From the IMG/VR virus record IMGVR_UViG_3300045988_058378: a DNA stretch of 31,500 nt, one strand, 5' to 3'. Position 1 is the stretch's first letter. The number at the start of each line of letters is the position of its first letter. This document shows, piece by piece, positions 4,177 through 31,500 of the stretch. This DNA is from a virus. The translations under genes were made by a program, and so were the position numbers. The notes beneath the pieces are model-generated. The model ran no database searches. It was not told where the DNA came from and saw only the letters and a list, made by a program, of their open reading frames with translations.

Positions 4177-4261
4177 GGAACGTTGCGCGAGTGGTTTAAG
4201 CGGGCACCCTGCTAAGGTGCTAACTGGCAACGGTTCGGGGGTTCGAATCCCTCACGTTCCG
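4177..4261 (+). tRNA. tRNA-Ser (anticodon GCU), type II with long variable arm
   Basis: Hand fold: acceptor GGAACGT/ACGTTCC; anticodon stem GCACC/GGTGC with loop CTGCTAA; variable arm AACTG-GCAA-CGGTT; T arm GGGGG-TTCGAAT-CCCTC. Confidence 0.85.
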
Positions 4262-4447
4262 CAATCCTAACGTGAGCCTAGGATAAGCGTTAGGCGGTTG
4301 AGTACACTACTCTTGCAGTGACTCAGACGAAATATAAAAGGGCGGCTAGAGAGCATGGCCGATAGTGAGGTAACATGTGCTCTCCGGTCAACGGTTGGCG
4401 GTCGATAGGATTGCGGCGGTAACCTGCTAAAGTCCAAGCTAACCAAT
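4262..4447 (+). ncRNA. Structured inter-tRNA spacer (candidate ncRNA or processing element)
   Basis: Long-range helix CCGCAATCCT (4259-4268) with AGGATTGCGG (4407-4416). It encloses hairpins CCTAACG/CGTTAGG (4266-4294), TGAGT..ACTCA (4299-4325) and GAGAGCA/TGCTCTC (4349-4384). No tRNA cloverleaf could be fitted. Confidence 0.25.
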
Positions 4448-4519
4448 TTTCCCGTGGTGTAATAGGTAGCACGGCAGTCTTTGGAACTGCTTGTTTTGGT
4501 TCGAGTCCAGACGGGAGAG
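4448..4519 (+). tRNA. tRNA-Gln (anticodon UUG)
   Basis: Hand fold: acceptor TTTCCCG/CGGGAGA; D arm GTGT-AATAGGTA-GCAC; anticodon stem GCAGT/ACTGC with loop CTTTGGA; T arm TTTGG-TTCGAGT-CCAGA. Confidence 0.8.
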
Positions 4520-4558
4520 CGGAACATAATAGGAGCATGCGCCTATTATGTCATTGCT

Positions 4559-4662
4559 TGGGCTGTAGTTCAGTGGACAGAACGGGACGTGGCTATTTGT
4601 CGTGTCGCAACATGACTAAGTGTCACGTCTATATGTCGCGGGTTCGAGTCCCATCAGCCCCC
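4559..4662 (+). tRNA. Aberrant tRNA-like element: canonical acceptor, D and T arms, but about 30 extra nt in the anticodon arm (pseudo-tRNA or insert-bearing tRNA; anticodon undetermined)
   Basis: D arm GTTC-AGTGGACA-GAAC and T loop TTCGAGT flanked by GGG/CCC. Acceptor pairs GGGCTG/CAGCCC. Where the 17-nt anticodon arm should be, a GACGTG/CACGTC helix encloses 32 nt, including the hairpin GTCGTG-TCGCAA-CATGAC. Confidence 0.4.
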
Positions 4663-4798: not shown

Positions 4799-4826
4799 GC
4801 CCCTCTAATCGCGCGACTAGAGGGGC
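4799..4826 (+). promoter_or_regulatory. GC-rich hairpin immediately 5' of terL that sequesters the only SD-like sequence (GAGGGG)
   Basis: GCCCCTCTA (4799-4807) pairs with TAGAGGGGC (4818-4826), followed by GTTTCC and the ATG at 4833. Confidence 0.5.
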
Positions 4827-10381: not shown

Positions 10382-10415
10382 GGGGTAGAGTTAAATACTC
10401 TACCCCTCGTTAATT
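10382..10415 (+). terminator. Intrinsic terminator-like hairpin after the capsid gene
   Basis: GGGGTAGAG (10382-10390) pairs with CTCTACCCC (10398-10406), followed by TCGTTAATT. Confidence 0.5.
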
Positions 10416-10426
10416 GAGGATTGAAT

Positions 10427-10657
10427 ATGACTAATATTTACGCACATCTCGCGGACGGTGATGCACCGAAGAATCAACATGTTACCGAAGTAAGTTTTGT
10501 TGACGAGACCGGAAAGCACATCGACGTTGGAACAACCGGCGAAACCGGCGCTGTTTTAACCAAGCTACGCGCAATTCCCGCACTTGCAAGTGACGCGGAC
10601 TTAGCTACTGTCACTGCTAAGGTTAACGAGATTCTGGCCGCTGTAGCTAAGGAATAG
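10427..10657 (+). CDS. Hypothetical small structural-region protein, 76 aa
   Basis: GAGGA lies 6 nt before the ATG at 10427 (the track ORF starts at the TTG at 10421). Confidence 0.6.
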   Translation: MTNIYAHLADGDAPKNQHVTEVSFVDETGKHIDVGTTGETGAVLTKLRAIPALASDADLATVTAKVNEILAAVAKE

Positions 10658-10668
10658 CAGACGGTAGA

Positions 10669-10706
10669 ATAGGGGTATCACAATAGTGGTACCCCTATTT
10701 CTATTT
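10669..10706 (+). terminator. Intrinsic terminator
   Basis: AATAGGGGTA/TACCCCTAT stem (extended by CAC/GTG), followed by the T-rich TTCTATTTCG. Confidence 0.55.
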
Positions 10707-19949: not shown

Positions 19950-20248
19950 TGGAAACGGCATTATTGTGCGCCATCCTCGGCAGTCAGACGGTGACTATTG
20001 TCGTGCAATGGTTGTTAAGCAAAATCGATGCGAAACGCAATCCGTTACGCGATGGTGTGAAAGAACTCTTGTTTTGCAAGCTGAAACAGTTTGACGAACA
20101 GCGGGAGCATAACGGGTTCATGCCAATTGCGGACAAGGAAATCGTTGAACGTGTCTACACCGCCTATCATGCTTTAGGGGGTAATGGTGTTGGTACGGAG
20201 ATAGTGAATAAGATTCGTGCTTGCGCGAGTAGTAGGGAGGAAAAATGA
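19949..20248 (+). CDS. N-terminally membrane-anchored small protein (holin, antiholin or lysis accessory candidate)
   Basis: METALLCAILGSQTVTIVVQWLL forms one TM helix. The ATG overlaps the upstream TGA, and the gene lies immediately 5' of the endolysin. Confidence 0.5.
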   Translation: METALLCAILGSQTVTIVVQWLLSKIDAKRNPLRDGVKELLFCKLKQFDEQREHNGFMPIADKEIVERVYTAYHALGGNGVGTEIVNKIRACASSREEK

Positions 20249-21483
20249 AACGAACACCGAAGCATAAGCGTATCAAGCGGAGCATGATCAAGCCGGTTGC
20301 CGGTTTGACATTGAGCACAGTTATCATGCTCGCGCCTAGCGTGGCTATGGCGGACATGAACGGTGTGGATGTGAGCGGTTGGCAACCGGCTAACATTACG
20401 CGCGTTATCCCGGCTGATTTTGCTATCGTCAAGGCCACCGAGGGTGTGGACTTCACTAACGGTTCGTGGGTTAGTCAGATTACTGGCGCTATCGAAACTG
20501 GCAAGATTCATGGATTGTACCATTATGCGAATGGTGGCAGTGCGATTGCGGAAGCCGACTACTTTGTTAACACGGTGGGCTCTTATGTTGGCCGTTCCAT
20601 GCTCGTGTTGGACTGGGAGAGTTACCGTAATGTCTCGTGGGGTAATGGTAATTGGGTTCGCGAGTGGGTTAATCGCGTGCATGAACGTACTAGTGTTTGG
20701 CCGGTGGTTTACGTGCAAGCGTCTGCCGTGTGGCAGATTCCGCAGGACGTGCGTCAACATTGCATGCTGTGGAAGGCGCAGTATGCGAGCAATGCCGTTA
20801 CCGGTTATCAGTCTCAGCCGTGGAATGCTGGCAGTGCTGGCGAGGGCATGTTGCAATACACGTCTCATGGAATGTTGAATGGGTATGGTGGGTTCCTTGA
20901 CCTTGACTTGTTCTTCGGTGATAAAACTGCTTGGGGTCGGATTGCTTGCGGTGAACGTAGTGGGTGCGTACCTAATTCGTTTGCTAATACTGGCACCACT
21001 ACCACGGTGAAGCATGATACGCCGAACACTACGTCTAATGGTGATGTGAATCAGATGGCGAACGACGTTATCGCGGGCAGATACGGTAATGGTGCGACGC
21101 GTCGCGCACTCTTGGGCGGCTATTATGATTCGGTTATGAGGATTGTGAATAATCGTCTTGGGTGTGGTACGTCTCAATCGTCTGCGCAATGCGTTTACGT
21201 TCAGTCTGGTGACACGTTGAGTTCGATTGCATCACGCTATGGTGGTAGTTGGAATGAGTGGACGGGCTACCGTAGCGGCAATCCGAACATCATTTATGCT
21301 GGTGAGCGTGTTTGCCGTCGCAGTTCTAGCGTTTCCACTGGGGGAGCACGCCGTTATACTGTGCGGTCTGGTGACACGTTGAGCGGTATCGCGTCACGAT
21401 ATAAGATTAACGTGGGTCAGATTAAGGGCTATCGTTCAGGCAATCCTAACGTGATTTACCCGGGTGAAACCTTGTATTGGTGA
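20245..21483 (+). CDS. Endolysin: signal peptide + GH25 muramidase + two LysM repeats
   Basis: GGGAGGA RBS. The N-terminus is KHKRIKRS...LTLSTVIMLAPSVAMA|D. GVDVSGWQ...IVKATEG...DWE fits the GH25 pattern. The C-terminus has YVQSGDTLSSIASRYG and YTVRSGDTLSGIASRY (LysM). Confidence 0.85.
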   Translation: MKRTPKHKRIKRSMIKPVAGLTLSTVIMLAPSVAMADMNGVDVSGWQPANITRVIPADFAIVKATEGVDFTNGSWVSQITGAIETGKIHGLYHYANGGSAIAEADYFVNTVGSYVGRSMLVLDWESYRNVSWGNGNWVREWVNRVHERTSVWPVVYVQASAVWQIPQDVRQHCMLWKAQYASNAVTGYQSQPWNAGSAGEGMLQYTSHGMLNGYGGFLDLDLFFGDKTAWGRIACGERSGCVPNSFANTGTTTTVKHDTPNTTSNGDVNQMANDVIAGRYGNGATRRALLGGYYDSVMRIVNNRLGCGTSQSSAQCVYVQSGDTLSSIASRYGGSWNEWTGYRSGNPNIIYAGERVCRRSSSVSTGGARRYTVRSGDTLSGIASRYKINVGQIKGYRSGNPNVIYPGETLYW

Positions 21484-21495
21484 TTGGAGTAAATT

Positions 21496-21795
21496 ATGAA
21501 CATTACTCAGGCTGAGACTATCGCGGTTGCTATCGTCGGTTTGGTTGCTCCCGTATTCGTGCAGGTTGTTAAACCTATTCTGCCGGATAACATGACCGCC
21601 TTGTTTAGTCTCGCGGTCAGTATTGTGTTGGGCATGTTGGCTATCGCGGCGGTGGGCGGTTTTAATCACGGTTATACGTGGGGTGTACTGCTTGTTGCTG
21701 TGGTGGGTGTCTCTCAGACGGTTTACACTGCTGTCAATCAGGTGATGGGCGGCAAACTTGGTAAAACGTTCGTTGACGAAAATAAGTTGCCCTAG
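21496..21795 (+). CDS. Holin candidate (three predicted TM helices)
   Basis: 99 aa with hydrophobic segments AIVGLVAPVFVQVV, LFSLAVSIVLGMLAIAAVGG and WGVLLVAVVGV. Adjacent to the endolysin. Confidence 0.6.
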   Translation: MNITQAETIAVAIVGLVAPVFVQVVKPILPDNMTALFSLAVSIVLGMLAIAAVGGFNHGYTWGVLLVAVVGVSQTVYTAVNQVMGGKLGKTFVDENKLP

Positions 21796-21801
21796 TATAA
21801 T
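21773..21801 (+). promoter_or_regulatory. Near-consensus promoter TTGACG-17 nt-TATAAT at the 3' end of the holin gene
   Basis: -35 at 21773-21778, -10 at 21796-21801. Only about 90 nt remain before the terminator at 21851-21896. Confidence 0.5.
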
Positions 21802-21850
21802 GTGAAGTGCTGAAAGTTTTGGCGATTGACTTTTAGTGCTGTCATTGATA

Positions 21851-21896
21851 AAGCCGCACGGGTTCATTTTCTTCCCAGTGCGGCTTATCCTTTTTT
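21851..21896. terminator. Bidirectional terminator between the convergent arms
   Basis: AAGCCGCAC(GGG)...(CCC)AGTGCGGCTT stem followed by ATCCTTTTTT on the plus strand. It lies between the holin stop and the HNH stop. Confidence 0.7.
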
Positions 21897-22236: not shown

Positions 22237-22433
22237 TATTTTTCCGATTGCTCCATACAAAATTCTGCTAATTGCGCGAGTACAGTTCCAAACATGACGT
22301 AGCTGTCCTTGCTGAGGGTTGCGGCTTCCCCAATCGTGTAGGTTTGGTTTTCCTTATTGGTGGTGTAGCGTAGTTTTTCTTCCACCATTGAGTCGGCTAG
22401 TTCAACGCTGACATGCACGATAAATTCTGGCAT
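22236..22433 (-). CDS. Hypothetical protein, 65 aa
   Basis: GGGAGGAA RBS before the ATG at 22433 (MPEFIVHVSV...). Confidence 0.55.
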   Translation of the reverse strand: MPEFIVHVSVELADSMVEEKLRYTTNKENQTYTIGEAATLSKDSYVMFGTVLAQLAEFCMEQSEK

Positions 22434-22437
22434 TTTT

Positions 22438-22599
22438 TCATTTTGTTTCCTCCCTTGGTTGGAATGATGCGACTTGTTCGCCTTCATCGTCAAAAATGGT
22501 TGCGGTTTCTCCGTGTTCCACTGTTTTTCTTGCCATGGCTACGGCTTGGCTGAATGTGACGCATACATAATCGACACCGTTGAATCTTACTGTATACAT
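22438..22599 (-). CDS. Hypothetical protein, 53 aa
   Basis: Own translation: MYTVRFNGVDYVCVTFSQAVAMARKTVEHGETATIFDDEGEQVASFQPREETK. GAAAGGA RBS. First gene after hairpin H1. Below the track cutoff. Confidence 0.5.
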   Translation of the reverse strand: MYTVRFNGVDYVCVTFSQAVAMARKTVEHGETATIFDDEGEQVASFQPREETK

Positions 22600-22624
22600 G
22601 TTTTATTCCTTTCGTTAGTTGTGT

Positions 22625-22642
22625 CCCGCCCTTGCGGACGGG
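22625..22642 (-). promoter_or_regulatory. Intercistronic GC-rich hairpin H1 (minus sense CCCGUCC-GCAA-GGGCGGG)
   Basis: 7-bp stem with a GNRA loop. The U-G wobble is valid only in minus-sense RNA. It sits between the stop at 22651 and the ATG at 22599. Confidence 0.6.
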
Positions 22643-22650
22643 GCTGTTGT

Positions 22651-22899
22651 TTAAAGATATTTTATTTCTGCCTCGTAGACTGCGCACTGGTCTAATCCTT
22701 GATGCCATGTGAAATCGTCTACAAGACAGACTCGGCCGAACGTGAAATTTTCGTCGCGCTTGAGGATGTTGCGCATGTTTGCCAATTGGTTTTTAAATTC
22801 CACTGCTTCGCTGTGGAAATCGTAGACTTCTCCGGTTTCTTTTATTACGAGACGTTGTGTGCAGATGCGATAGCTGAGGTAGATGATTGCGGTGGCCAT
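22651..22899 (-). CDS. Hypothetical protein, 82 aa (first ORF of module 1)
   Basis: Track ORF. The ATG is preceded by the cassette SD GAAAGGA. Confidence 0.65.
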   Translation of the reverse strand: MATAIIYLSYRICTQRLVIKETGEVYDFHSEAVEFKNQLANMRNILKRDENFTFGRVCLVDDFTWHQGLDQCAVYEAEIKYL

Positions 22900-22966
22900 T
22901 TTGGTTTGTCCTTTCTTATCGGTTGGTAATTACATAATACATCATTGTTGAGTACGACACGCCGAA
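22900..22966 (-). promoter_or_regulatory. Class-II promoter/5'UTR cassette C1
   Basis: Minus sense: TTCGGCGTGTCG-N15-TATTAT-GTAATTACC-...-GAAAGGA-N9-ATG. Near-identical to C4 and C5. Confidence 0.6.
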
Positions 22967-23232
22967 CGTTCGACAAACACGCCCCAGCACATAGGAATTT
23001 TCAGCGGCACCAACCGGGACACGCGATAGTCAGCGCCATAACGCACTTCAGCAAGCCGAGCAATAACCGCGTGCGCTCTCTCCCTTGCTTCGGCAATCCG
23101 CTTGCCATAGCCACGCTTGCGCTTCTGCCAACCGTCGCTAGTCCTCTCATATACCTCCCATACGACACCGTTTTCCGAATAATGAGACTGCACGCGATAA
23201 TCGTAAGCGTCAACGTTCCTATATTTCACCAT
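22942..23232 (-). CDS. Hypothetical protein, 96 aa
   Basis: AAGGGGG RBS. The C-terminal residues SACRTQQ are encoded by cassette C1. Confidence 0.6.
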   Translation of the reverse strand: MVKYRNVDAYDYRVQSHYSENGVVWEVYERTSDGWQKRKRGYGKRIAEARERAHAVIARLAEVRYGADYRVSRLVPLKIPMCWGVFVERSACRTQQ

Positions 23233-23242
23233 ATCCCCCTTT

Positions 23243-23572
23243 TTAGTACATTTCCGCGATGTGTCGAGTGAACGCGCATACGCTGACTGCCGTCATATAG
23301 CCGCGTAATCCCGTCTTCCTCGCCATGAGAAGCCACACGGGGAAAGTGATGAATGGTGCGAGACACCAACCACATGTAGCGAGATTACGCAGACTGAAGG
23401 CTTGCAGTGCTTCGCGTCTCTGCCCCTTCGTTTCGTACTGCGTTTCGACTGTGTTGAGAGCGTCTAACCATACTCTGCGCGCATTCTTTAAGGACATGCC
23501 GAAACCGTCCGTTGTCTGGATGCAAGTATTGAGGTACCCGGCGACTAGTCCGGCCTGCACTGCCTTGTTCAT
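23243..23572 (-). CDS. Hypothetical protein, 109 aa (hydrophobic C-terminus)
   Basis: ATG at 23572 (MNKAVQAGLV...), coupled to the upstream stop by ATGA. The longer track ORF 23243..23845 overlaps other genes. Confidence 0.5.
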   Translation of the reverse strand: MNKAVQAGLVAGYLNTCIQTTDGFGMSLKNARRVWLDALNTVETQYETKGQRREALQAFSLRNLATCGWCLAPFITFPVWLLMARKTGLRGYMTAVSVCAFTRHIAEMY

Positions 23573-23715
23573 TTCTTTGCTCCTTTGCGGTAGACGTAGA
23601 GTGCCGCCAGCATGCACGCGACACCGATAATATTGATGAAGTTCATGTTTTCGTTCGCGGATAATACGATTCCGAAGAGAAAGAGTATTGCCACGAAGCC
23701 GTCGTTTTTGTTCAT
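23569..23715 (-). CDS. Small membrane protein, 48 aa
   Basis: MNKNDGFVAILFLFGIVLSANENMNFINIIGVACMLAALYVYRKGAKK has two hydrophobic helices. GAAAGGA RBS after hairpin H2. Confidence 0.5.
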   Translation of the reverse strand: MNKNDGFVAILFLFGIVLSANENMNFINIIGVACMLAALYVYRKGAKK

Positions 23716-23972
23716 TGCTGGTTCCTTTCGATTGGCGCCCCGCCCTTGCGGGCGGGGCGGGGGGGGCATTCTCCGATGATTTCCGCAAACTTGTCGGTGA
23801 GCCACTTGAGGTATTCTTTTCTGGTGTTAAACTTGCCTTGTGCATGTTCGGTACCGTTCCACCATGCTCCCGTGGTGTTCTCGTTCCACTATGTTTCGAC
23901 GTTTACCGTGCCGTCTTCGTTGGTGGTGGCCTTGATGTTGTATCCCTTGAAGCAGTTGGTTTCGGTGTTCAT
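23712..23972 (-). CDS. Hypothetical protein (first ORF of module 2) carrying an in-frame TAG
   Basis: Own translation from the cassette ATG at 23972: MNTETNCFKGYNIKATTNEDGTVNVET*WNENTTGAWWNGTEHAQGKFNTRKEYLKWLTDKFAEIIGE... The TAG is at 23889-23891. The frame stays open for 58 more codons and ends in a TGA overlapping the next ATG. Confidence 0.45.
23737..23758 (-). promoter_or_regulatory. GC-rich hairpin H2 (GCCCCGCCC-GCAA-GGGCGGGGC)
   Basis: Perfect 9-bp stem with a GNRA loop, about 20 nt upstream of the ATG at 23715. Confidence 0.6.
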
Positions 23973-24035
23973 TTTGTTTGTCCTTTCTTTGTTTGGTAAT
24001 TACATAATACACTACTTGTGTACACGACACGCCGA
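23973..24035 (-). promoter_or_regulatory. Class-II promoter/5'UTR cassette C2
   Basis: Minus sense: TTCGGCGTGTCG-N15-TATTAT-GTAATTACC-AAACAAAGAAAGGACAAACAAA-ATG. Confidence 0.6.
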
Positions 24036-24078
24036 AAAATAAAAAAAGGGAATCTACAAAATTTCTTCGTAGATTCCC
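24035..24078 (-). terminator. Canonical rho-independent terminator (minus strand)
   Basis: 10-bp stem GGGAATCTAC/GTAGATTCCC followed on the minus strand by TTTTTTTATTTTT. It lies just after the stop at 24086. Confidence 0.8.
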
Positions 24079-24085
24079 TGAATTT

Positions 24086-24367
24086 TCATCGACTGCAATA
24101 CGCTAAGCACTGCACCTCAAGCGCATCCACATGACGGTAGCACACTCCATCAAACACGAAAAAAGGCGCGGTAGAATACTTGTGAGCCTTTCGCAAAGTC
24201 CAGTAACGACTGTTACCCGGCTGAACTACCATGAGAGCAACCATAACGCCCGTTTTCTTCTTGATTCGCACCACCATTTTTCGTAGTCCGTCAATCAATT
24301 CCCGGTGCTTGCATCCCGCGCAATCATCGAAAACCGCGTAAATGACACGTCTTGAAATGCTCACCAA
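24086..24367 (-). CDS. Thioredoxin/glutaredoxin-fold protein candidate (CAGC redox motif)
   Basis: VIYAVFDDCAGCKH...TAPFFVFDG resembles NrdH/Grx-like architecture. TTG or GTG start overlapping the upstream stop. Confidence 0.4.
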   Translation of the reverse strand: MVSISRRVIYAVFDDCAGCKHRELIDGLRKMVVRIKKKTGVMVALMVVQPGNSRYWTLRKAHKYSTAPFFVFDGVCYRHVDALEVQCLAYCSR

Positions 24368-25245
24368 TCCACACCTCCCAGTTTTTGCAGTCCGTCAATG
24401 AGTGCCAATGTCTGCAATTCCTTTGTCTCCTGCGCTTCGATTTCACTTGCAACGCTCTGCCGTTCCACCGCGAACACCTCATGTTGCAGACTGCCATACA
24501 CCCTATCATCTAACATAGTGAAATACACCGTGTGCAAGTCAGGGTTGACGACAAAATACTGAAGCACTTGAGACTGATACTGCTCCGGAATGAAGTCGAA
24601 CTCCCGACGCGTTTCCAGAATCTCCGGGAACAACTTGAGGGCCAACGACTGCAATTCATTCCGCTGACTATCCGGAGTTTCCGAATAGTTGAGCATCTGG
24701 TATACGCGGAATGGAACAACCGTTTGAAGATGGTATTTCGTTCCCAGACTTTTCGCTTCGAATGCGAACGTGGGATTATGTTCCAGCCCGTTAAAGATTC
24801 GCGGTTTGGCGTGAGCGTCAGGACTGACCGCAATTCGGTCATCCACGTCACTTACCCACATTCCCGTGTTAAACTCAACTACGTTAGGCGAAATGTCGAA
24901 TTTTTCGCACGCCATCATGATATTAGTGTTTTCCAAACGGTGACCGCGTTCCATTGGCGGTTCCCCGTCCGGCTGTTCCGCAATCATATCAGCGAGGAAC
25001 TGCCAAAAATCAAGGTTGACTTTCAACCGTTCGTTATCTCGTTTTGCTTGCCGTGCCTTCTCTCGGTATTCTTCGGCCTTTTCTTCGGTCTTTGCCTTGT
25101 CTGCCATGGCTTCGAGTTTGGCTACGTCCTTTTGGGCGTAATGTTCGAGCGCGAGTGTTCCGGCTTTGGTGCCCGTGATTTTACCAATTCGCGCGTCCAA
25201 CCATGCTTCAGTGTCCTGCGCTTGAGAAACGTTCAGAATCTTCAT
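24361..25245 (-). CDS. YqaJ/lambda-Exo-like PD-(D/E)XK recombination exonuclease
   Basis: N-terminal QDTEAWLDARIGKITGTKAG (YqaJ signature). Catalytic-type SPD...FEAKS motifs. A coiled-coil insert is present. Confidence 0.7.
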   Translation of the reverse strand: MKILNVSQAQDTEAWLDARIGKITGTKAGTLALEHYAQKDVAKLEAMADKAKTEEKAEEYREKARQAKRDNERLKVNLDFWQFLADMIAEQPDGEPPMERGHRLENTNIMMACEKFDISPNVVEFNTGMWVSDVDDRIAVSPDAHAKPRIFNGLEHNPTFAFEAKSLGTKYHLQTVVPFRVYQMLNYSETPDSQRNELQSLALKLFPEILETRREFDFIPEQYQSQVLQYFVVNPDLHTVYFTMLDDRVYGSLQHEVFAVERQSVASEIEAQETKELQTLALIDGLQKLGGVDW

Positions 25246-25246
25246 T

Positions 25247-25654
25247 TTAGTTTTCCTTTCTTACCGGTAATCCGTTTTCCGTTGTTGCGAGCATGTATGA
25301 TTTCAGTAGTGTGTCCGCTATTTTTTGCCGTCGTGCGGGCGGGATGCGTCTGAGGTTGGTTTCCCAGTGCGCGACTTGGCATTGGCGTACACCGTACATT
25401 TTTGCTATTTCACGTTGGCTGATGCCGAACGCGTTGCGCAAATATTTCAACAATTCGCTATCATCCAAAGAGTCAAGATAAGTATTTCGACTGTTGACGG
25501 TGCGGAGATTGTTTTCGTGGTCGAGCGTGAATAGATTGCCGTTTTTTGACTGGATAAGGTAGGCGTAAACGTCTTCCTTAATTCGGTATTCTCGCTCTCC
25601 GGCGACGGTTTTGAATGTGATGGGCATGGCTTCCGGCCATAGTGTGAGTCTCAT
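25247..25654 (-). CDS. DNA-binding protein with C-terminal XRE-type HTH
   Basis: LRNAFGISQREIAKMYGVRQCQVAHWETNLRRIP is a classic HTH_3 pattern. GAGAGAGGA RBS. Confidence 0.6.
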   Translation of the reverse strand: MRLTLWPEAMPITFKTVAGEREYRIKEDVYAYLIQSKNGNLFTLDHENNLRTVNSRNTYLDSLDDSELLKYLRNAFGISQREIAKMYGVRQCQVAHWETNLRRIPPARRQKIADTLLKSYMLATTENGLPVRKEN

Positions 25655-25666
25655 TTATCCTCTCTC

Positions 25667-25933
25667 TCACGCAATCTCTTCATCATAGAAGACGTATGCG
25701 ATTCCGTTGACAGTGTTGAATTTTCCCTGCACAACGTCTTTGTGAATTGTCGGTTCGATTTCAGCCAAGTAGAGCAAGTCTAGTGCGTCTTCTCTTGAAT
25801 TTGGGTAGATTGCGATTTGTGGCGTGTAGTCTTTTAGTTCAATGTCCGGTGAGTCTTCAGCCACTTCGTCGAGCTTGGTTAGTGTCTCTTTGAGGAATGT
25901 GACGTATTGGGTGAGGGTTATTGTATCTTCCAT
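25667..25933 (-). CDS. Highly acidic hypothetical protein, 88 aa
   Basis: 19 Asp/Glu versus 6 Lys/Arg by direct count. First gene after hairpin H3. Confidence 0.6.
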   Translation of the reverse strand: MEDTITLTQYVTFLKETLTKLDEVAEDSPDIELKDYTPQIAIYPNSREDALDLLYLAEIEPTIHKDVVQGKFNTVNGIAYVFYDEEIA

Positions 25934-25955
25934 TATTGTTCCTTTGGTTAGGGGT

Positions 25956-25977
25956 GCCCCGCCCTTGCGGGCGGGGC
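25956..25977 (-). promoter_or_regulatory. GC-rich hairpin H3 (GCCCCGCCC-GCAA-GGGCGGGGC)
   Basis: Perfect 9-bp stem with a GNRA loop, between the stop at 25989 and the ATG at 25933. Confidence 0.6.
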
Positions 25978-25988
25978 TGTGGTTTGGT

Positions 25989-26183
25989 TTAGAGTGCGTG
26001 TTCCTTGAGCAGTTCGGTGAATTCGTCGGGGTCTACCTGCTCATAATCGGTGTAGCCGTTCATGTCGCAGATGTCGCGGAGGTCTTTCGCGGCTCCGTAG
26101 GTATTCCAATCGCCGTCATCCTGCCCGCTGTTTTGAAGGTAGTTGACGATGTAGGTTTCTGCTGTGCTGAGGTTGATTTCCAT
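25989..26183 (-). CDS. Highly acidic hypothetical protein, 64 aa (first ORF of module 3)
   Basis: 15 Asp/Glu versus 3 Lys/Arg by direct count. The ATG is preceded by the cassette SD. Confidence 0.6.
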   Translation of the reverse strand: MEINLSTAETYIVNYLQNSGQDDGDWNTYGAAKDLRDICDMNGYTDYEQVDPDEFTELLKEHAL

Positions 26184-26246
26184 TTTGTTTGTCCTTTCTT
26201 TGTTTGGTAATTACATAATACAACAGTTTTGGTTACGACACGCCGG
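26184..26246 (-). promoter_or_regulatory. Class-II promoter/5'UTR cassette C3
   Basis: Minus sense: CCGGCGTGTCG-N15-TATTAT-GTAATTACC-AAACAAAGAAAGGACAAACAAA-ATG. Confidence 0.6.
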
Positions 26247-26247
26247 A

Positions 26248-26415
26248 CTAGAGATAATCCATGACAACGAAACCAATACCCGCCAAACCAATAAGGATGT
26301 TAGCCAATGCGAGAAGAATCATAAGGCTATCCTCGCATTGAAATGCCACTCCCAAAGCGACAGCGGCCACAATCGTAAGCACTAAGAAGACACAGAATAT
26401 AGCAACCTTTTTCAC
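26248..26415 (-). CDS. Small two-helix membrane protein, 55 aa
   Basis: Own translation: (GTG)KKVAIFCVFLVLTIVAAVALGVAFQCEDSLMILLALANILIGLAGIGFVVMDYL. The GTG overlaps the ERF TGA, and AAGGGTGG lies 6 nt upstream. Confidence 0.45.
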   Translation of the reverse strand: MKKVAIFCVFLVLTIVAAVALGVAFQCEDSLMILLALANILIGLAGIGFVVMDYL

Positions 26416-27005
26416 TTATTGCCACCCTTGTTGATAGCCTGACGGAGAAGCATAACGTCATGCTCGGTCAAGTCCTGAGGCTTACGCACCTCATGGCCGA
26501 ACTGTGATGCCAGAGCGCTGACGTAGAAGCCCAGATTTGTTCCAGCGGCCTGAGCCATATCGTTAAGTTCGTTGACTTCTTGTGCCGTGGCCTTACGTGG
26601 TTGCTTTGGGGTGGAATAGTCGCGCATGGCGGCACCGTCGTCGTCCTTGTCTGGGAAGATACCAAGGGCGGCGTAGAGGGAGTAGCGGCGCGCGTAGGTT
26701 ACTGCGGAGCCGATTGCCTGAGGGTCGGGCACCACAATGAATGGATAGTCGCCCACGTTCAGGGTTTTTTCGGCGTCGAAAATGATTGTTTCTACCGTAC
26801 CGTAGCTCATTTTGTCGCCTACCGTGCCCATGCGTACCACCTGCCGGAATGCCAAGTCATACTTGGCAAAAATAGGCTTGATGGTTTTGAGAATGGTAGC
26901 AAGATTAAGGTACTTGTAGGTGCGTTGTCCAGCGTTGGCTGTCAGGTCGGTGACGAAGTTGGGGACTTCGTTGAGGACTGCCATATATTTTTCTTCGAGT
27001 TTCAT
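26412..27005 (-). CDS. ERF-family single-strand annealing protein
   Basis: YLNLATILKTIKPIFAKYDL...QAIGSAVTYARRYSLYAALGI is the ERF core signature. Confidence 0.8.
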   Translation of the reverse strand: MKLEEKYMAVLNEVPNFVTDLTANAGQRTYKYLNLATILKTIKPIFAKYDLAFRQVVRMGTVGDKMSYGTVETIIFDAEKTLNVGDYPFIVVPDPQAIGSAVTYARRYSLYAALGIFPDKDDDGAAMRDYSTPKQPRKATAQEVNELNDMAQAAGTNLGFYVSALASQFGHEVRKPQDLTEHDVMLLRQAINKGGNK

Positions 27006-27028
27006 TATTGTTTCCTTTAATTAATGGT

Positions 27029-27050
27029 GCCCCACCCGCGTGGGCGGGGC
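27029..27050 (-). promoter_or_regulatory. GC-rich hairpin H4 (GCCCCGCCC-ACGC-GGGUGGGGC)
   Basis: 9-bp stem whose G-U pair exists only in minus-sense RNA. It lies between the stop at 27061 and the ATG at 27005. Confidence 0.6.
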
Positions 27051-27060
27051 TGGATGTCGT

Positions 27061-27360
27061 TTATAATGCGTTTTCGGGGAGGGTGTCGAGGTAGTCTATC
27101 GCATCGTACATTCCTTCGGTGGTGTATGGGAAAAGCTTCTCATAGCAGTGACTAGAATAGTGTTGGCCGCGCTTGCGGTAATCCCTGCGAAGTTCTTCGT
27201 CGGTCTTGGCGACTTCCCAGTGAACGCGAATTACTCGATGTATGTTTCCCTTGCGGGTAGTGTACACGTCAAGATTTTTAGTGATGTAGAGCTTCTTCTT
27301 GGGGCCCATCATGTTATCGAAGATTTCGAAGAGGTTGAAGCGGAGGTTTTCGGTGGTCAT
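27061..27360 (-). CDS. Hypothetical protein, 99 aa (first ORF of module 4)
   Basis: Track ORF. The ATG is preceded by the cassette SD. Confidence 0.65.
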   Translation of the reverse strand: MTTENLRFNLFEIFDNMMGPKKKLYITKNLDVYTTRKGNIHRVIRVHWEVAKTDEELRRDYRKRGQHYSSHCYEKLFPYTTEGMYDAIDYLDTLPENAL

Positions 27361-27424
27361 TTTGGTTTGTCCTTTCTTGGTTGGTAATTACATAATACAT
27401 CATTGTTGAGTGCGACACGCCGAA
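27361..27424 (-). promoter_or_regulatory. Class-II promoter/5'UTR cassette C4
   Basis: Minus sense: TTCGGCGTGTCG-N15-TATTAT-GTAATTACC-AACCAAGAAAGGACAAACCAAA-ATG. Confidence 0.6.
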
Positions 27425-27843
27425 CTAGGCAGAATCTCACCCAAACGACTCAACCCACGCGCGCTATCAAGCCCACGGAACCGTTTAGCGGACTGTGCGG
27501 CTTCATCGAGACTACGCCCGCTCAACCTATTCCGCCGATACTCCCAACTCGCCTCACCCTCAATACCCAGTGCGCGCATTTCACGCGTAATGTCGGCTTC
27601 GGAAGGCTTATGGTCACGTTTCCACTTGGCCCAAAAGCTGTTAACGTCGGCGGGCATGAGATACGGCCGCTTCTTCGCATATTCCGGGCTTGCGAAAAAT
27701 TGGCGTATGGCTTCTTTCGCCACGTCCAATCGCATGTCAGTGGCTAACGCTTCCATCCATGCGGCCACCTGCATATCGGTCACAAGACGGTTATCAAAGG
27801 CGCTGGCATAAGTTAGTAGTGCTTGCACTTGCAGTTTATTCAT
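27400..27843 (-). CDS. Hypothetical protein, 147 aa
   Basis: AAGGAA RBS. The ATG at 27843 overlaps the upstream gene by 8 nt. The C-terminal SACRTQQ is encoded by cassette C4. Confidence 0.6.
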   Translation of the reverse strand: MNKLQVQALLTYASAFDNRLVTDMQVAAWMEALATDMRLDVAKEAIRQFFASPEYAKKRPYLMPADVNSFWAKWKRDHKPSEADITREMRALGIEGEASWEYRRNRLSGRSLDEAAQSAKRFRGLDSARGLSRLGEILPSSACRTQQ

Positions 27844-28252
27844 TTCTCGATTCCTTGAATTCAAGTTGCATTAATTTCACGACTTTCAACATGCCGTCCA
27901 AGTCACTTTTTCTAAGGTACAGCCAGAAGAGACCTTCCGTATAGGTGGTGGCTTGGCGGGCAAGGTCTAGCATGGTATCCATGTAGAGACAGCACTTCCC
28001 CACTTGCTTGAGATTGTGTGCGTCCAAGGGTTCGCCATCAATTTCCATGTGGCATTTCTCCCCATTGTCGATAGCCTTCCGCAGATACCATTCCGCTTTC
28101 TGCAAGTCCTCCAATGGGCGCCCCTTAAGCCGGTACCGCCACACGTATTTTATGGCGTTGCCTACGCAAAAACTGTGATATTGCGCGACTTCAATGCATT
28201 CGCAAGGTTTCGTATCGTCAGTGTAGTGTGCTGGATGATTGATATTGCCCAT
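27836..28252 (-). CDS. DUF3310-family protein
   Basis: INHPAHYT...CECIEVAQ...GNAIKYVWRYRLKGRPLEDLQKAEWYL matches my recollection of the DUF3310 signature. Confidence 0.6.
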   Translation of the reverse strand: MGNINHPAHYTDDTKPCECIEVAQYHSFCVGNAIKYVWRYRLKGRPLEDLQKAEWYLRKAIDNGEKCHMEIDGEPLDAHNLKQVGKCCLYMDTMLDLARQATTYTEGLFWLYLRKSDLDGMLKVVKLMQLEFKESRNE

Positions 28253-28263
28253 GAGTGTTTCCC

Positions 28264-28671
28264 TTAGAAGTTTGGTGTGATTGAGTCCAGAAAATCGTCA
28301 AGGTAAAGTATGTAGTCTTCTTGGGCGGAATCGTGCGCCTGTGTCTGGTAGTCACCGTGTTGCCATTGAATTCCGCTTGAGAATTTCAGCCGACTGATTC
28401 CAGCGAGATATACGAGTATCGTATTGTGGACTTTATCAGTCGTCCAGTCTGAGGGAGCTACAACGTCCAGCATGTAGGTTTTAGATTGTGCACCGCTTCT
28501 CTGCCGGTTTTCTAAGCCTTTCCATGCTGACAGCCATACGCGATAGCGGACTATTTTGGGATTGTCTTGCACGGTCACGGCTGTCTCGAATATGGCAGTG
28601 TCCTTGTCTTTGTCGCATTCCACGACAGAATGCATGTCATATGGTGGAATGTCGCTGAATAGTGTCAACAT
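28264..28671 (-). CDS. Hypothetical protein, 135 aa
   Basis: ATG at 28671 (MLTLFSDIPP...) with a GGAAGGGAA RBS. First gene after hairpin H5. Confidence 0.55.
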   Translation of the reverse strand: MLTLFSDIPPYDMHSVVECDKDKDTAIFETAVTVQDNPKIVRYRVWLSAWKGLENRQRSGAQSKTYMLDVVAPSDWTTDKVHNTILVYLAGISRLKFSSGIQWQHGDYQTQAHDSAQEDYILYLDDFLDSITPNF

Positions 28672-28694
28672 TATGAGTTCCCTTCCAATTGGGT

Positions 28695-28716
28695 GCCCCA
28701 CCCTTGCGGGTGGAGC
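28695..28716 (-). promoter_or_regulatory. GC-rich hairpin H5 (GCUCCACCC-GCAA-GGGUGGGGC)
   Basis: 9-bp stem with a U-G pair valid only in minus-sense RNA, and a GNRA loop. It lies between the stop at 28726 and the ATG at 28671. Confidence 0.6.
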
Positions 28717-28725
28717 AGGTGTTTT

Positions 28726-28986
28726 TCATGCTTTGCGTTCGTAAACGTCTACGTCATAGCCACCTTCAGTGGTGTAGTCTGGCTTGAATTTGCCGAGCCG
28801 GTAGCCTCGTTTGAGCATTTCAAGTCGGAGGGTGAATAGGATGCCTCCCACACGGTTCAGGTTTTCAATGTCGAAGTTGATTCCGTTATCGATGTTGCGG
28901 ACGTGTGCGGTTGCGTTTTCTTCGTCGATGATGACGTATGCGTCACAGATGTATTCGCCTTGGTTGTACGGCTGGAGTTTAACCAT
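28726..28986 (-). CDS. Hypothetical protein, 86 aa (first ORF of module 5)
   Basis: Cassette ATG at 28986 (MVKLQPYNQG...). The longer track ORF would run through the promoter and terminator. Confidence 0.6.
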   Translation of the reverse strand: MVKLQPYNQGEYICDAYVIIDEENATAHVRNIDNGINFDIENLNRVGGILFTLRLEMLKRGYRLGKFKPDYTTEGGYDVDVYERKA

Positions 28987-29050
28987 TTTAGATTCCTTTC
29001 TTATCGGTTGGTAATTACATAATACATCATTGTTGAGTACGACACGCCGG
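28987..29050 (-). promoter_or_regulatory. Class-II promoter/5'UTR cassette C5
   Basis: Minus sense: CCGGCGTGTCG-N15-TATTAT-GTAATTACC-AACCGATAAGAAAGGAATCTAAA-ATG. Confidence 0.6.
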
Positions 29051-29088
29051 AAAACAGAAAATGCCCGCCGAAACAAATCAGCGGGCAT
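29051..29088 (-). terminator. Rho-independent terminator (minus strand) after the paralog triplet
   Basis: ATGCCCGC/GCGGGCAT stem followed on the minus strand by TTTCTGTTTT. Confidence 0.7.
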
Positions 29089-29102
29089 AATGAGAATCAT
29101 TA

Positions 29103-29522
29103 TCAATAGGCGAACTTGACCGGCACTAGCGGGAGCGCCCCAGCACCAAACGTCGAGATAACAAGAGGCCATGTAACATGTAACGCGGATGATCCATCGC
29201 TCCAAACACGGTTTAGCGGCTCAGTCCCATACTTTCCGTCATCAAGAGTAGGACGGCGCACACTCCAATCACCTGCTCCGTCACTGTAGAGCAGTGTGCC
29301 GGTCTGGGTGATGTAATAGCCCTCCTCTGTTGGCATTTCCTGCATTGTCCTCATATTTTCTGGGAAACGATAATTGAGTGCGTCTTGCAATGCTTTCATC
29401 TCGTTTTCATCCCGGAACCTTAGCACGACATTCCACCCGTCTTCCGTCGTAGTGGCGGCCAAGTCTCGCAATGAGTTGATAACAATAGATTCCGGATTTG
29501 TATACGCTGTGACCTTAATCAT
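29103..29522 (-). CDS. Paralog family member C, 139 aa, unknown function
   Basis: Shares L-x-x-L-N-x-x-FPEN, EEGYY-x-TQTG-LL, DWSVR and a C-terminal PL-x-V motif with the two upstream genes. Confidence 0.7.
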   Translation of the reverse strand: MIKVTAYTNPESIVINSLRDLAATTTEDGWNVVLRFRDENEMKALQDALNYRFPENMRTMQEMPTEEGYYITQTGTLLYSDGAGDWSVRRPTLDDGKYGTEPLNRVWSDGSSALHVTWPLVISTFGAGALPLVPVKFAY

Positions 29523-29532
29523 TTTTGTCCTT

Positions 29533-29982
29533 TCACTGATAAATTGGGGTGACGCTCACACGAGTCAGCGGGAACGCCTTGGCGCCAAGCTTCTTAATTA
29601 CCTTGAGCCAATCGGTCTCGTAATCGTCGTTTTCTCCCAGCCAATTACAATGCGCTGGGCTGGTATATGGGTCTCCCTCGTCGTATGCTCTGATACTCCA
29701 ATCGCCTTCCGTATCCTTGCATAGAAGTAGTCCGGTGGAGGTAAGGTATAGGCCTTCTTCTTCGGGCTCCTTGAATTTCTTGTCAAGTTTGATATTTTCC
29801 GGGAAAATATTGTTTAATCCGTCTTGGAGTGCCTGTAAATCTTCCGTGGAGTAAAACCCAATGTCCAAACACCTTGTATGGTCTTGGTTGAGTCGTTCGT
29901 CTATGGATGCCGATTTAACGCCATCGATACGTAGGCTGTTGATGCCATTCTCGTAAGCGTAACGGGATACTGTGATAATCAT
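29533..29982 (-). CDS. Paralog family member B, 149 aa, unknown function
   Basis: AAAGGA RBS before the ATG at 29982. Motifs LNNIFPEN, EEGLYLTSTGLLL, DWSIR and FPLTRV. Confidence 0.7.
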   Translation of the reverse strand: MIITVSRYAYENGINSLRIDGVKSASIDERLNQDHTRCLDIGFYSTEDLQALQDGLNNIFPENIKLDKKFKEPEEEGLYLTSTGLLLCKDTEGDWSIRAYDEGDPYTSPAHCNWLGENDDYETDWLKVIKKLGAKAFPLTRVSVTPIYQ

Positions 29983-29993
29983 TTTTTGTCCTT

Positions 29994-30410
29994 TCATTCT
30001 GAAAATGGGGTAATGTTTACACGAGTTAGTGGCAGTGCGACTTTAGTTAATTTTTCGATGACATTTTGCCATTTCTCGTTGATTAAATGTAAGTGTGTTG
30101 GGTCCCATGCCAAGTATGGTGTAGTTGAGTCTTTGAATCGTATGACGCTCCACCCCCATTCATCTTTTAAGAGCAGTATTCCAGTTTGCGAGAGGTAATA
30201 CCCTTCTTCTTTTGGTTCTCTGAATTTTTCGTCTACGGTGACGTTTTCGGGGAAAAGATTATTTAACTCGTTTTGGAATTCTTTCAAATCGTCCAAGTTG
30301 CTGAATTGCAGTCGCACGGTGTTCGTGGGATTGCATTTGCCTCGTTTTACTCCGTGAATGGTCAGTGTTTCGCAGTCTGCGAATGATTGGTGGCTTACTT
30401 TTATTGACAT
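29994..30410 (-). CDS. Paralog family member A, 138 aa, unknown function
   Basis: AAAGGGG RBS. Motifs LNNLFPEN, EEGYYLSQTGILLL, WSVIR and LPLTRV. Confidence 0.7.
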   Translation of the reverse strand: MSIKVSHQSFADCETLTIHGVKRGKCNPTNTVRLQFSNLDDLKEFQNELNNLFPENVTVDEKFREPKEEGYYLSQTGILLLKDEWGWSVIRFKDSTTPYLAWDPTHLHLINEKWQNVIEKLTKVALPLTRVNITPFSE

Positions 30411-30477
30411 TTCATGCCCCTTTCATTGGTTGGCCTCACATTATCGATTATATATGATTACGGACGCGACACGCCGG
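30411..30477 (-). promoter_or_regulatory. Divergent class-II promoter cassette C6
   Basis: Minus sense: CCGGCGTGTCG-N14-TATAAT-CGAT... then AAAGGGG-N6-ATG. The box overlaps the last codons of the replication gene (SGVSRP*). Confidence 0.5.
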
Positions 30478-31228
30478 ACTCAATCTGAAAGCCGAAGAGG
30501 TCAGTTTGCGACTGCATCGCTTGGGCTAGATTCTGCATATTCCGTTCCGCGTTCGTGGCGGGCTTGCGTGCTCGCGGAGGGTCTGGACGGTATTCGTCGT
30601 TCCATCTTTCCCCGTTGAGCCATGTGGCGAAATTTGGAATAAATCTGGTTTCCGTGTTGGCGCACTGCGCGGCGAATGCTTGCACCTTGGCCATGAGGAA
30701 GGCACTGTTCATACCTACTTTTGCTTTACGCCATGCCTTGTAAGCTGCCATCTTGGCTACATGCTTCGGGTAGATTGTCCACAGTTGTTCGAACGCTGTC
30801 GGGTATTCTTCGCGCTTGTGTGGTGCTGGTTCCGTCGGTGCGGGTTCGCGTGTGGGTTCTACCGTGGTAGTCGATTCTGGAGCTTGGTAAAGCGTTTTAT
30901 CAAGCGTATCAGGCTTAGAGGAATCAGACTGGACATTACGTTCTTCGGTGGTCACATGGTAGACGGTTGATTTACGCACGCCATTTGCCGCATATCTTGG
31001 CTCACGAGTAATAAGCCCTTTGGCCTCTAGCGATTTCAGCGCGGTATAGACGCTACGTTCTCCGCACATTGCTTCGGCGGCTATCGTGGCCACTGACGGG
31101 AAGCACTGCCCGTTATCGTCAGTGTGGTCTACTAGAACGATGTAGACGAGTTTTTCCAAAGTGTTGTCAAAGTGCTTTCCTCTGATGACCCAGTGGCGCA
31201 TAGCACAAAAACCTTGAATATCTTGCAT
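30458..31228 (-). CDS. Replication initiator or replisome organiser with winged-helix HTH N-terminal domain
   Basis: LVYIVLVDHTDDNGQCFPSVATIAAEAMCGERSVYTALKSLEAKGLITRE is a wHTH pattern. The C-terminus FEQLWTIYPKHVAKMAAYKAWRKA is a motif common in phage replication proteins. The gene is adjacent to the iterons. The start is set at the leaderless ATG at 31228, because the longer track ORF translates the repeats. Confidence 0.6.
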   Translation of the reverse strand: MQDIQGFCAMRHWVIRGKHFDNTLEKLVYIVLVDHTDDNGQCFPSVATIAAEAMCGERSVYTALKSLEAKGLITREPRYAANGVRKSTVYHVTTEERNVQSDSSKPDTLDKTLYQAPESTTTVEPTREPAPTEPAPHKREEYPTAFEQLWTIYPKHVAKMAAYKAWRKAKVGMNSAFLMAKVQAFAAQCANTETRFIPNFATWLNGERWNDEYRPDPPRARKPATNAERNMQNLAQAMQSQTDLFGFQIESGVSRP

Positions 31229-31343: not shown

Positions 31344-31500
31344 CTGCATGTGGTGCAGGGTAGTACTGCATGTGGTGCAGGGTAGTACTGCATGTGGTGC
31401 AGGGTAGTACTGCATGTGGTGCAGGGTAGTACTGCATGTGGTGCAGGGTAGTACTGCATGTGGTGCAGGGTAGTACTGCATGTGGTGCAGGGTAGTACTG
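31344..31500. repeat. Second view of the 22-bp iteron array (7.1 copies), identical to 1-157
   Basis: Units start at 31344, 31366, 31388, 31410, 31432, 31454 and 31476. Confidence 0.95.

Follow-up and report, generated by a model that had tools for sequence, protein, structure and literature searches.

In T4-like phages, promoter-early stem-loop (PeSL) cassettes (Arbiol et al. 2010, PMC2839356; Comeau et al. 2014, PMC4122927) combine a repeated, conserved early promoter, a GC (polyG/polyC) stem-loop, a Shine-Dalgarno (SD) sequence and a start codon. They flank small genes whose function is unknown, within the early, non-structural region, and the replacement or indel junctions between close relatives lie at these motifs. 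A comparable organization is present in IMG/VR virus record IMGVR_UViG_3300045988_058378, whose whole 31,500-nucleotide stretch was analysed and is referred to here as the window. Its early arm contains five repeated modules, each ordered as a 56-nt promoter-like repeat, a small open reading frame (ORF), a hairpin (H1 to H5), an AAAGGAA spacer and the ATG of a core gene. Judged by sequence features, the PeSL cassettes appear to be the closest described system: the GC stem-loop is part of a repeat that carries the SD and start codon at its 3' end, the flanked genes are small and variable, and the junctions between relatives fall at the motifs. The window differs in its unrelated sequence and phage lineage, its small, siphovirus-sized genome and its actinobacterial host. 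Moreover, promoter and stem-loop stand on opposite sides of the cassette rather than being contiguous, the -35 region is non-canonical, and the core genes behind the stem-loop, which has no U tract, depend on read-through.

Other known elements resemble the hairpins in part. Protective 3' structures of the malE-malF type (Dar & Sorek 2018, PMC5927463) are stable, U-tract-less hairpins behind the 5'-most gene that are conserved among relatives, and both of these sequence-level features are found here. In contrast, the present hairpins are intergenic, multicopy and near-identical at five sites, and belong to a Gram-positive, high-GC host with a different RNase set. The U-tract-less terminators proposed for Actinobacteria (tested by Czyz et al. 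2014, PMC3993855) likewise combine a GC hairpin without a U tract and an actinobacterial system, but the tested sequences did not terminate mycobacterial RNA polymerase (RNAP), and the downstream genes of the window need read-through. The SAS/ESAS repeats of Cluster K mycobacteriophages (Pope et al. 2011, PMC3203893) are also confined to the non-structural arm of an actinobacteriophage, where an inverted repeat of unknown function lies just upstream of a conserved SD motif and start codon. They share no sequence similarity with the hairpins; the 13-bp SAS GGGATAGGAGCCC and the 17-bp imperfect inverted repeats are unrelated to the elements of the window, where 9-bp arms enclose a 4-nt loop and always follow the promoter-proximal ORF. 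Variation in the ESAS arms does not support pairing, whereas that in the hairpins does. Morons, defined as promoter-gene-terminator units (PMC3594210), resemble the modules in placing a single accessory gene of deviating composition (rich in third-position C here) among core genes, together with a promoter of its own and a stem-loop at its 3' side. The modules depart from morons in that no U tract follows the stem-loop, transcription from the promoter would also supply the core genes downstream, one genome contains five units whose flanks are near-identical, and no prophage context is evident. Finally, the lambda nut site (boxA/boxB) downstream of cro shares the succession of promoter, small gene and GC hairpin with a GNRA-type loop, but here the stem is 9 bp rather than 5 bp, 25% of the loops are non-GNRA, no N-like protein is evident and few downstream terminators would have to be overridden. 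A nut/boxB-like antitermination role was rejected, as there is no conserved boxA, the loops vary and the upstream flank varies with the type of small gene.

An earlier interpretation made from the letters of the DNA (the sequence-only reading) had reported five intercistronic hairpins. A search for GCCCCGCCC-N4-GGGCGGGGC with up to three mismatches returned exactly five sites in the window, all on the minus strand, where shuffled sequences give an expectation of 0.01. These hairpins rank among the most stable of the minus strand, with free energies of -19.5 to -24.8 kcal/mol and stems of 9-10 bp (Table 1). A covariance model built from the five copies, as the sequence-only reading had suggested, retrieved exactly those five in the window; applied to the related phages BlindBasel1 and BlindUri1, it gave weak, SD-driven matches at the analogous sites. 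An Rfam scan of the window (E ≤ 1) returned only tRNAs and two chance-level matches elsewhere, and none at the hairpins. The minus strand of 22400-29300 confirms that H2 and H3 are perfect and that the loop is GCAA in four of the five copies, the exception being H4. The single G-U substitution described for each of H1, H4 and H5 is present in all three, but H1, taken as the full 9-bp homologue, also contains a C.A mismatch, which the 7-bp stem quoted earlier does not include.

Family statistics were derived from 29 related contigs of 17-32 kb, obtained from two exact-pattern scans of IMG/VR. From these contigs 135 hairpins were extracted by a strand-neutral criterion, a Hamming distance of at most 4 from a palindromic arm consensus, and 129 of them have a 4-nt loop. 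Scanning metagenomes with the promoter core brought in 76 further copies, some of them from genomes already sampled. The 18-base promoter pattern also produced about 30 single matches in unrelated long metagenome contigs, approximately the chance number, and these were disregarded.

The promoter-like repeat contains an invariant CGGCGTGTCG-N13-TGTATTAT that is common to the five window copies and 108 distinct family copies. Its second block, TGTATTAT(GTAATTACC), is separated from CGGCGTGTCG by 13 nt. The putative promoter has a sigma-70-like -10 element (TATTAT) and GCGTGT at the -35 position. The block past the -10 element contains the 8-bp palindrome GTAATTAC, which is replaced by AAAACTATC in a variant class. 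BlindBasel1 has a canonical TTGACA promoter with GGCGTGTCGG located 17 nt upstream of it (L001 2225-2290). A consensus hairpin lies 220-360 nt downstream (in two cases at ~660 nt) of 118 of the 125 family promoters, and most of the hairpins that initially lacked a promoter have a variant one with the CGGCGTGTCG-N13-TGTATTAT core or sit at the edge of a locus. Where the promoter directly precedes Erf or the g2a gene, both the small gene and the hairpin are missing.

Hairpin and spacer together constitute a single repeat unit of ~50 nt. The sequence-only reading had noted a tight spacing to the next start, and the stem indeed ends 21-23 nt ahead of the ATG in the window and 20-25 nt ahead of it in the 129 family copies. 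The ACC..GAAAGGAA spacer is conserved, also in BlindBasel1 and BlindUri1, and the flanks of the hairpin fold as unstructured, leaving the SD free. On the other side, the stop codon of the small gene is 6-14 nt from the stem in most copies. The core early genes behind the hairpins encode Erf, a YqaJ-type exonuclease, a helix-turn-helix (HTH) protein and a DUF3310 protein, and no promoter is found between the hairpin and the start of Erf, the exonuclease or the other core genes.

Variation within the family demonstrates that pairing is under selection. Both sides have changed in four of the nine pairs (A6-U17, U8-A15, U2-A21 and A4-U19); the seven compensated cells were matched by none of 500 shuffles, and the covariation score exceeded that of every shuffle. 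The observed stem variants also surpass in stability random ones matched to them in number and type of substitutions (P < 0.001 for the sense and 0.004 for the antisense strand). In two relatives, a different small gene is followed by a hairpin of non-homologous sequence, GGGGCGTG-N8-CACGCCCC. BlindBasel1 and BlindUri1 have the same layout of stop codon, 6-13 nt, hairpin, ACC..GAAAGGAAC and ATG, with stems that are unrelated to the family and present the G-rich arm first (GGGCGGGAG/CTCCCGCCC and GGCGGGGU/ACCCCGCC). What matters is structure and not sequence, as non-homologous stems occupy the same position in relatives. The primary sequence of the element is highly conserved over the five paralogous slots.

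The central claim of the sequence-only reading was that the stems show strand-specific wobble pairing, from which it deduced selection at the RNA level. This claim did not hold when homologous copies were counted. Among the 129 hairpins, sense G.U pairs occur 30 times, sense C.A pairs 25 times and other mismatches 24 times; the corresponding numbers are 11, 11 and 19 for the 42 distinct 22-mers, and 13, 15 and 22 for 40 distinct stems including metagenome copies. The fraction of cells with standard pairs is the same on either strand (92.1%, distinct sequences), and the mean free-energy difference (ddG) per copy, with the loop held constant, is +2.7 kcal/mol for sense RNA and +3.0 kcal/mol for antisense RNA. 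The window by itself contains three G.U and one C.A, a difference that is not significant. One pattern leans toward the earlier claim: of the G.U variants, the two most frequent (positions 6 and 7) lie in the interior of the stem, and of the C.A variants, the two most frequent (positions 2 and 8) lie close to its ends, as selection on sense RNA predicts. It was rejected as a strand signal, as it reflects only about four ancestral events and the energy cost per copy is equal on both strands. Strand-specific wobble across related copies is not supported, and therefore the hairpins provide no covariation evidence that could be quoted for an RNA element specific to one strand.

The loop is the sole strand-asymmetric feature. 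It is a GNRA tetraloop (GCAA or GUAA), worth ~0.9 kcal/mol, in 97 of the 129 copies; by sequence, GCAA accounts for 96, ACGC for 21 and others for 12. The non-GNRA quarter comprises ACGC, ACAA, ACAC, AAGC and CCAA, and two of the 129 loops are inverted. Exact inversions of the loop with the stem unchanged convert GCAA to TTGC (L088, contig 059318, offset 8138 of the promoter-oriented strand), ACGC to GCGT (L041, contig 037893, offset 1427) and, between BlindBasel1 and BlindUri1, AAACAG to TTGTTT (L001 816-821 versus L002 ~11700). Such inversions are as expected of template switching within a palindrome.

The statements that the hairpins lack a U tract and that the arm holds two genuine terminators were both upheld. 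The first 8 nt past the stem contain 0-2 U in 129/129 copies, and the first 3 nt contain none in 126/129. A scan of the minus strand for strong stems followed by T runs flagged the two canonical terminators of Table 1 and none of the H hairpins. Compared with canonical intrinsic terminators, the hairpins are GC-rich but have no U tract of 7-9 nt, nor do they end a transcription unit, the next genes beginning 20-25 nt downstream with an SD and without a promoter. In unrelated viral contigs the identical stem-loop has a T run behind it and is an ordinary terminator, and thus the absent U tail is specific to this phage family. A scan of the plus strand flagged H1, H3 and H5, where the antisense tails contain 0-6 U in 8 nt; an antisense terminator was rejected as the main role, since no copy has three or more U adjoining the stem, as termination needs (PMC3993855). 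Two further candidates were also discarded. An RNase III site of the T7 early type would comprise ~20 bp, or two helical turns, whereas the stem is 9-10 bp and folds of the 111-nt context add nothing. ACCA directly follows the stem in 70 of 129 copies, but a tRNA-like minihelix (an RNase P or CCA-type signal) was dismissed because ACCA comes along with the repeat by descent and the g1a slot lacks it.

The small genes in front of the hairpins, formerly described as leader ORFs, fall into eight families of 64-114 aa. Their conserved lengths and the bias of variation to the third codon position show that they are conserved protein genes. A Pfam/PHROG scan of four of the small genes in the window gave no match, and an AlphaFold model of L4 (pLDDT 71) compared with the PDB by Foldseek gave no match with E < 0.6. 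In the minus-strand genes between 21436 and 29000, third-position C decreases stepwise from 0.42-0.61 in the first gene of a promoter-to-promoter module to 0.21-0.23 in the last, while third-position G and T rise, and the values are reset at each promoter. The C-rich codons of the small genes are consistent with high expression. L2 is disrupted in this genome: codon 28 has changed from TGG to TAG, and the stop codon from TGA to TGC inside a stretch of eight consecutive C. The gene is intact, at 68 aa, in all close relatives. Recoding of the TAG was rejected; since the relatives read TGG and the L2 stop has also been lost, L2 is a pseudogene, which is the sole explanation needed for the position of H2 inside an ORF. 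The placement of H2 within its leader ORF is therefore true of this genome only, L2 of the relatives ending 7 nt before the hairpin, and the related proposal that translation unwinds H2 falls, as it depends on the pseudogene.

Comparison of the genomes locates exchange at the repeats that flank the small genes. The slot between the end of g5c and Erf holds seven different small-gene families across genomes, which indicates that cassettes are exchanged at the linkers. Breakpoints between relatives lie at either edge of the hairpin-spacer unit, some genomes lack both the small gene and the hairpin, and BlindUri1 has one additional ORF-plus-hairpin unit compared with BlindBasel1. The small genes are thus swappable cassettes bracketed by the promoter repeat (~56 nt) and the hairpin-spacer repeat (~50 nt), and the linkers most likely also act as homology patches. 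It is rather doubtful that the linkers are, beyond their regulatory signals, maintained as a dedicated cassette-exchange system, akin to an integron without integrase, through which accessory genes are swapped. If so, linkers of ~50-56 nt would suit annealing by the phage's own Erf/YqaJ recombination module, and co-infecting relatives would swap early accessory genes, possibly with host-takeover or anti-defence functions, at fixed, expression-ready slots. Erf itself stands directly behind the most variable slot.

The functions shortlisted by the sequence-only reading (attenuator, processing site or stabiliser) are reasonable candidates. That reading missed the context by which the elements are explained, namely a conserved promoter followed by an exchangeable protein gene and a hairpin linker. 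The comparisons above demonstrate the module architecture, the selection on pairing, the absent U tract and the cassette exchange at the linkers; they place the hairpin at the 3' boundary of a promoter-proximal cassette and its repeat at the junctions of exchange. The favoured, although tentative, reading is that in the mRNA the hairpin slows decay from the 3' side of the first gene, or weakly attenuates transcription there, while the core genes are reached by read-through. By analogy to protective 3' structures, decay barrier or weak attenuator is the most likely role. The conserved putative early promoter would drive one small accessory protein gene, followed by the hairpin, the spacer with its SD and the first core gene. 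In the mRNA the hairpin would be too stable to remain unfolded. As it has no U tract, RNAP presumably would mostly read through it into the core genes, which have no promoter of their own. The hairpin would then block 3'->5' exonucleolytic decay and perhaps attenuate transcription weakly, so that the transcript of the first gene would end stably and be abundant, with the distal message decaying, as in malE-malF. Among 34 E. coli operons whose first gene is stabilised, the stabilised segment ends at a stable U-tract-less hairpin in 26 (PMC5927463).

Several observations weigh against this assignment. Single mismatches with a cost of 5-7 kcal/mol to the sense RNA have been retained in 6-11 contigs, among them C2.A21 in 11 contigs and C8.A15, at a cost of 6.9 kcal/mol, in 6 contigs. 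Because the stems carry no strand signal, an RNA-level role rests on location and physics. The tight spacing to the next ATG is unneeded for a pure 3' protector; it could be due to a function in expressing the downstream gene or to the common descent of the repeat. Furthermore, the stem-loops of PeSL cassettes are reported to reduce reporter expression like a strong terminator (PMC2839356).

The last result would fit hairpins that are genuine U-tract-less terminators or regulated attenuators, with most transcripts ending behind the small gene and the core genes reached only by leak or by phage-controlled antitermination. This alternative is unlikely. The very stable stems always stand directly behind the first ORF after a strong-looking promoter, the same stem-loop with a T run is a canonical terminator in unrelated viral contigs, and the mccA-mccB hairpin yields a short, abundant first-gene transcript (PMC4231749). 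However, mycobacterial RNAP in purified form fails to terminate when a U tract is missing, whether or not NusA or NusG is added (PMC3993855), and no copy has more than two U in the 8 nt past the stem. Core genes that include Erf and the exonuclease lack a promoter between the hairpin and their start, the same phage has proper U-tract terminators at its operon ends, and neither an antiterminator candidate nor a conserved boxA-like motif was found, the upstream flank varying with the small gene.

Less probable still is that the hairpin serves the downstream gene, either as a 5' stem-loop left after endonucleolytic cleavage in the A/C-rich flank (papBA/gapA type) or as a ribosome-binding-site insulator. 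The fixed spacing would be explained, as would the conserved ACC..GAAAGGAA spacer that persists even in BlindBasel1 and BlindUri1, but conservation of the spacer may stem from the SD and from membership in one duplicated repeat. Examples of protective 5' structures that lie downstream of RNase E sites are on record (PMC5927463); no cleavage motif was identified here. The unstructured flanks and free SD speak for this role, and an insulator would be well placed in a slot with an ever-changing gene upstream. The absence of the hairpin where Erf or g2a directly follows the promoter does not discriminate, as it is expected in this case as well.

Very improbable is a DNA-only element, in which the GC palindrome is an operator or roadblock to which a protein of the phage or the host binds, or is a mere recombination hotspot that has no function as RNA: the parity of G.U and C.A at equal energy cost on both strands, the sequence conservation over paralogous slots, the inverted loops (the TTGC and GCGT copies, and BlindBasel1 versus BlindUri1), the recombination junctions at the element and the judgement that the Cluster K ESAS inverted repeats are likelier protein sites (PMC3203893) would be compatible with it, but the compensatory double changes preserve pairing rather than sequence, unrelated stems take the same position in relatives, every copy lies in a transcribed intercistronic gap in one orientation with only 2/129 loops flipped, and an RNA stem of about -20 kcal/mol forms regardless.

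Table 1 Features of the early arm in the window (positions are those of the 31,500-nt stretch).
Feature	Position	Strand	Description or basis
H1 hairpin	22623-22644	-	GCCCCGUCC-GCAA-GGGCGGGAC; U7.G16 wobble and C2.A21 mismatch
H2 hairpin	23737-23758	-	perfect 9 bp (10 bp with 23736/23759), loop GCAA
H3 hairpin	25956-25977	-	perfect 9 bp, loop GCAA
H4 hairpin	27029-27050	-	G6.U17 wobble, loop ACGC (not GNRA)
H5 hairpin	28695-28716	-	U3.G20 wobble, compensated A6-U17 (double change relative to G-C), loop GCAA
Promoter-like repeat P1	22909-22964	-	invariant core CGGCGTGTCG-N13-TGTATTAT, then 5' untranslated region with AAAGGA
Other promoter-like repeats	23979-24034, 26190-26245, 27367-27422, 28994-29049	-	repeat family
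Conserved spacer, AAAGGAA Shine-Dalgarno and ATG of g1a	22597-22622	-	repeat family, alignment
Homologous spacers	23713-23736, 25931-25955, 27003-27028, 28669-28694	-	repeat family, alignment
L1, first gene after P1	22651-22899	-	82 aa, conserved protein family; ORF, family comparison
L2, disrupted	23712-23972	-	frame runs through H2; in-frame TAG 23889-23891, natural stop lost
L3, gene after P3	25989-26183	-	64-aa acidic protein; ORF, family comparison
L4, gene after P4	27061-27360	-	99-aa protein; homologues only in this phage family; no match in Pfam, PHROG or by fold
L5, gene after P5	28726-28986	-	86-aa protein; ORF, family comparison
Erf single-strand annealing protein	26412-27005	-	first core gene behind H4; upstream slot the most variable
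Canonical intrinsic terminator	24047-24079	-	15-bp stem, then TTTTTTTATTT
Canonical intrinsic terminator	29061-29088	-	11-bp stem, then TTTCTGTTTT

The two ends of the window are identical over 157 nt (1-157 and 31344-31500), which indicates a complete circular or terminally redundant assembly of ~31,343 bp. One 59.7-kb ENA contig (L089/L090) contains the genome as a head-to-tail dimer. The end overlap consists of approximately seven tandem copies of a 22-bp unit, CTGCATGTGGTGCAGGGTAGTA (noted over 1-223), which could be iterons or a packaging signal beside the HTH_36/DnaD-like gene (30458-31228, minus strand). Structural genes occupy the plus strand and the early arm the minus strand. The final plus-strand gene encodes a GH25/CW_7/LysM lysin (20245-21483) and has a convergent overlap of 48 nt with the final minus-strand ORF (21436-21867); no terminator-like site was flagged between the two arms (around 21436-21483). 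The window carries tRNA-Ser(GCU) and tRNA-Gln(UUG) genes, and the coordinates of the tRNA region are 4177-4262, 4448-4520 and 4559-4662. A third tRNA-like stretch of 104 nt scores just under the Rfam threshold and is not called by ARAGORN.

Hairpins and repeats near start codons also occur elsewhere in the window. In the late arm on the plus strand, a layout of stop codon, hairpin, SD and ATG flanks, at 10382-10406 and 10667-10700, a 78-aa gene (10421-10657) that comes after a 586-aa gene. A 12-bp hairpin (4799-4826) ends 6 nt before the terminase ATG (4833). On the minus strand a second, distinct start-associated repeat, ..ACTCGTGTRARCRTYACCCCAWTT..GAAAGGACAAAAATG, is found at 29522-29571 and 29983-30032, ahead of two consecutive genes upstream of the first cassette and with no hairpin evident.

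The closest isolates are the Bifidobacterium asteroides phages BlindBasel1 and BlindUri1, with a terminase identity of 52%, and the nearest relatives of the lysin are found in Bifidobacterium genomes at 43-59% identity. Together with the names of related contigs, which carry the label human gut metagenome, these similarities suggest that the host is most likely a gut Bifidobacterium. The phage family is present in many assemblies with this label, and the nearest cultured relatives infect Bifidobacterium of the honeybee gut. A megablast comparison of the region with 50,697 phage records gave no match, and no prophage relative was found with an Erf query against genome contigs.

With 29 related contigs and about 130 copies, the unit of promoter, small gene, hairpin-SD linker and core gene provides a well-populated natural example. 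If the hairpins are decay barriers, a small phage would set the ratio of first-gene to core-gene expression without terminators. If the linkers drive exchange, shuffling of the PeSL type would not be confined to the T4-like myoviruses that infect Gram-negative hosts but would extend to small phages infecting gut Actinobacteria, and the eight uncharacterised early protein families would be candidates for host-takeover or anti-defence functions.

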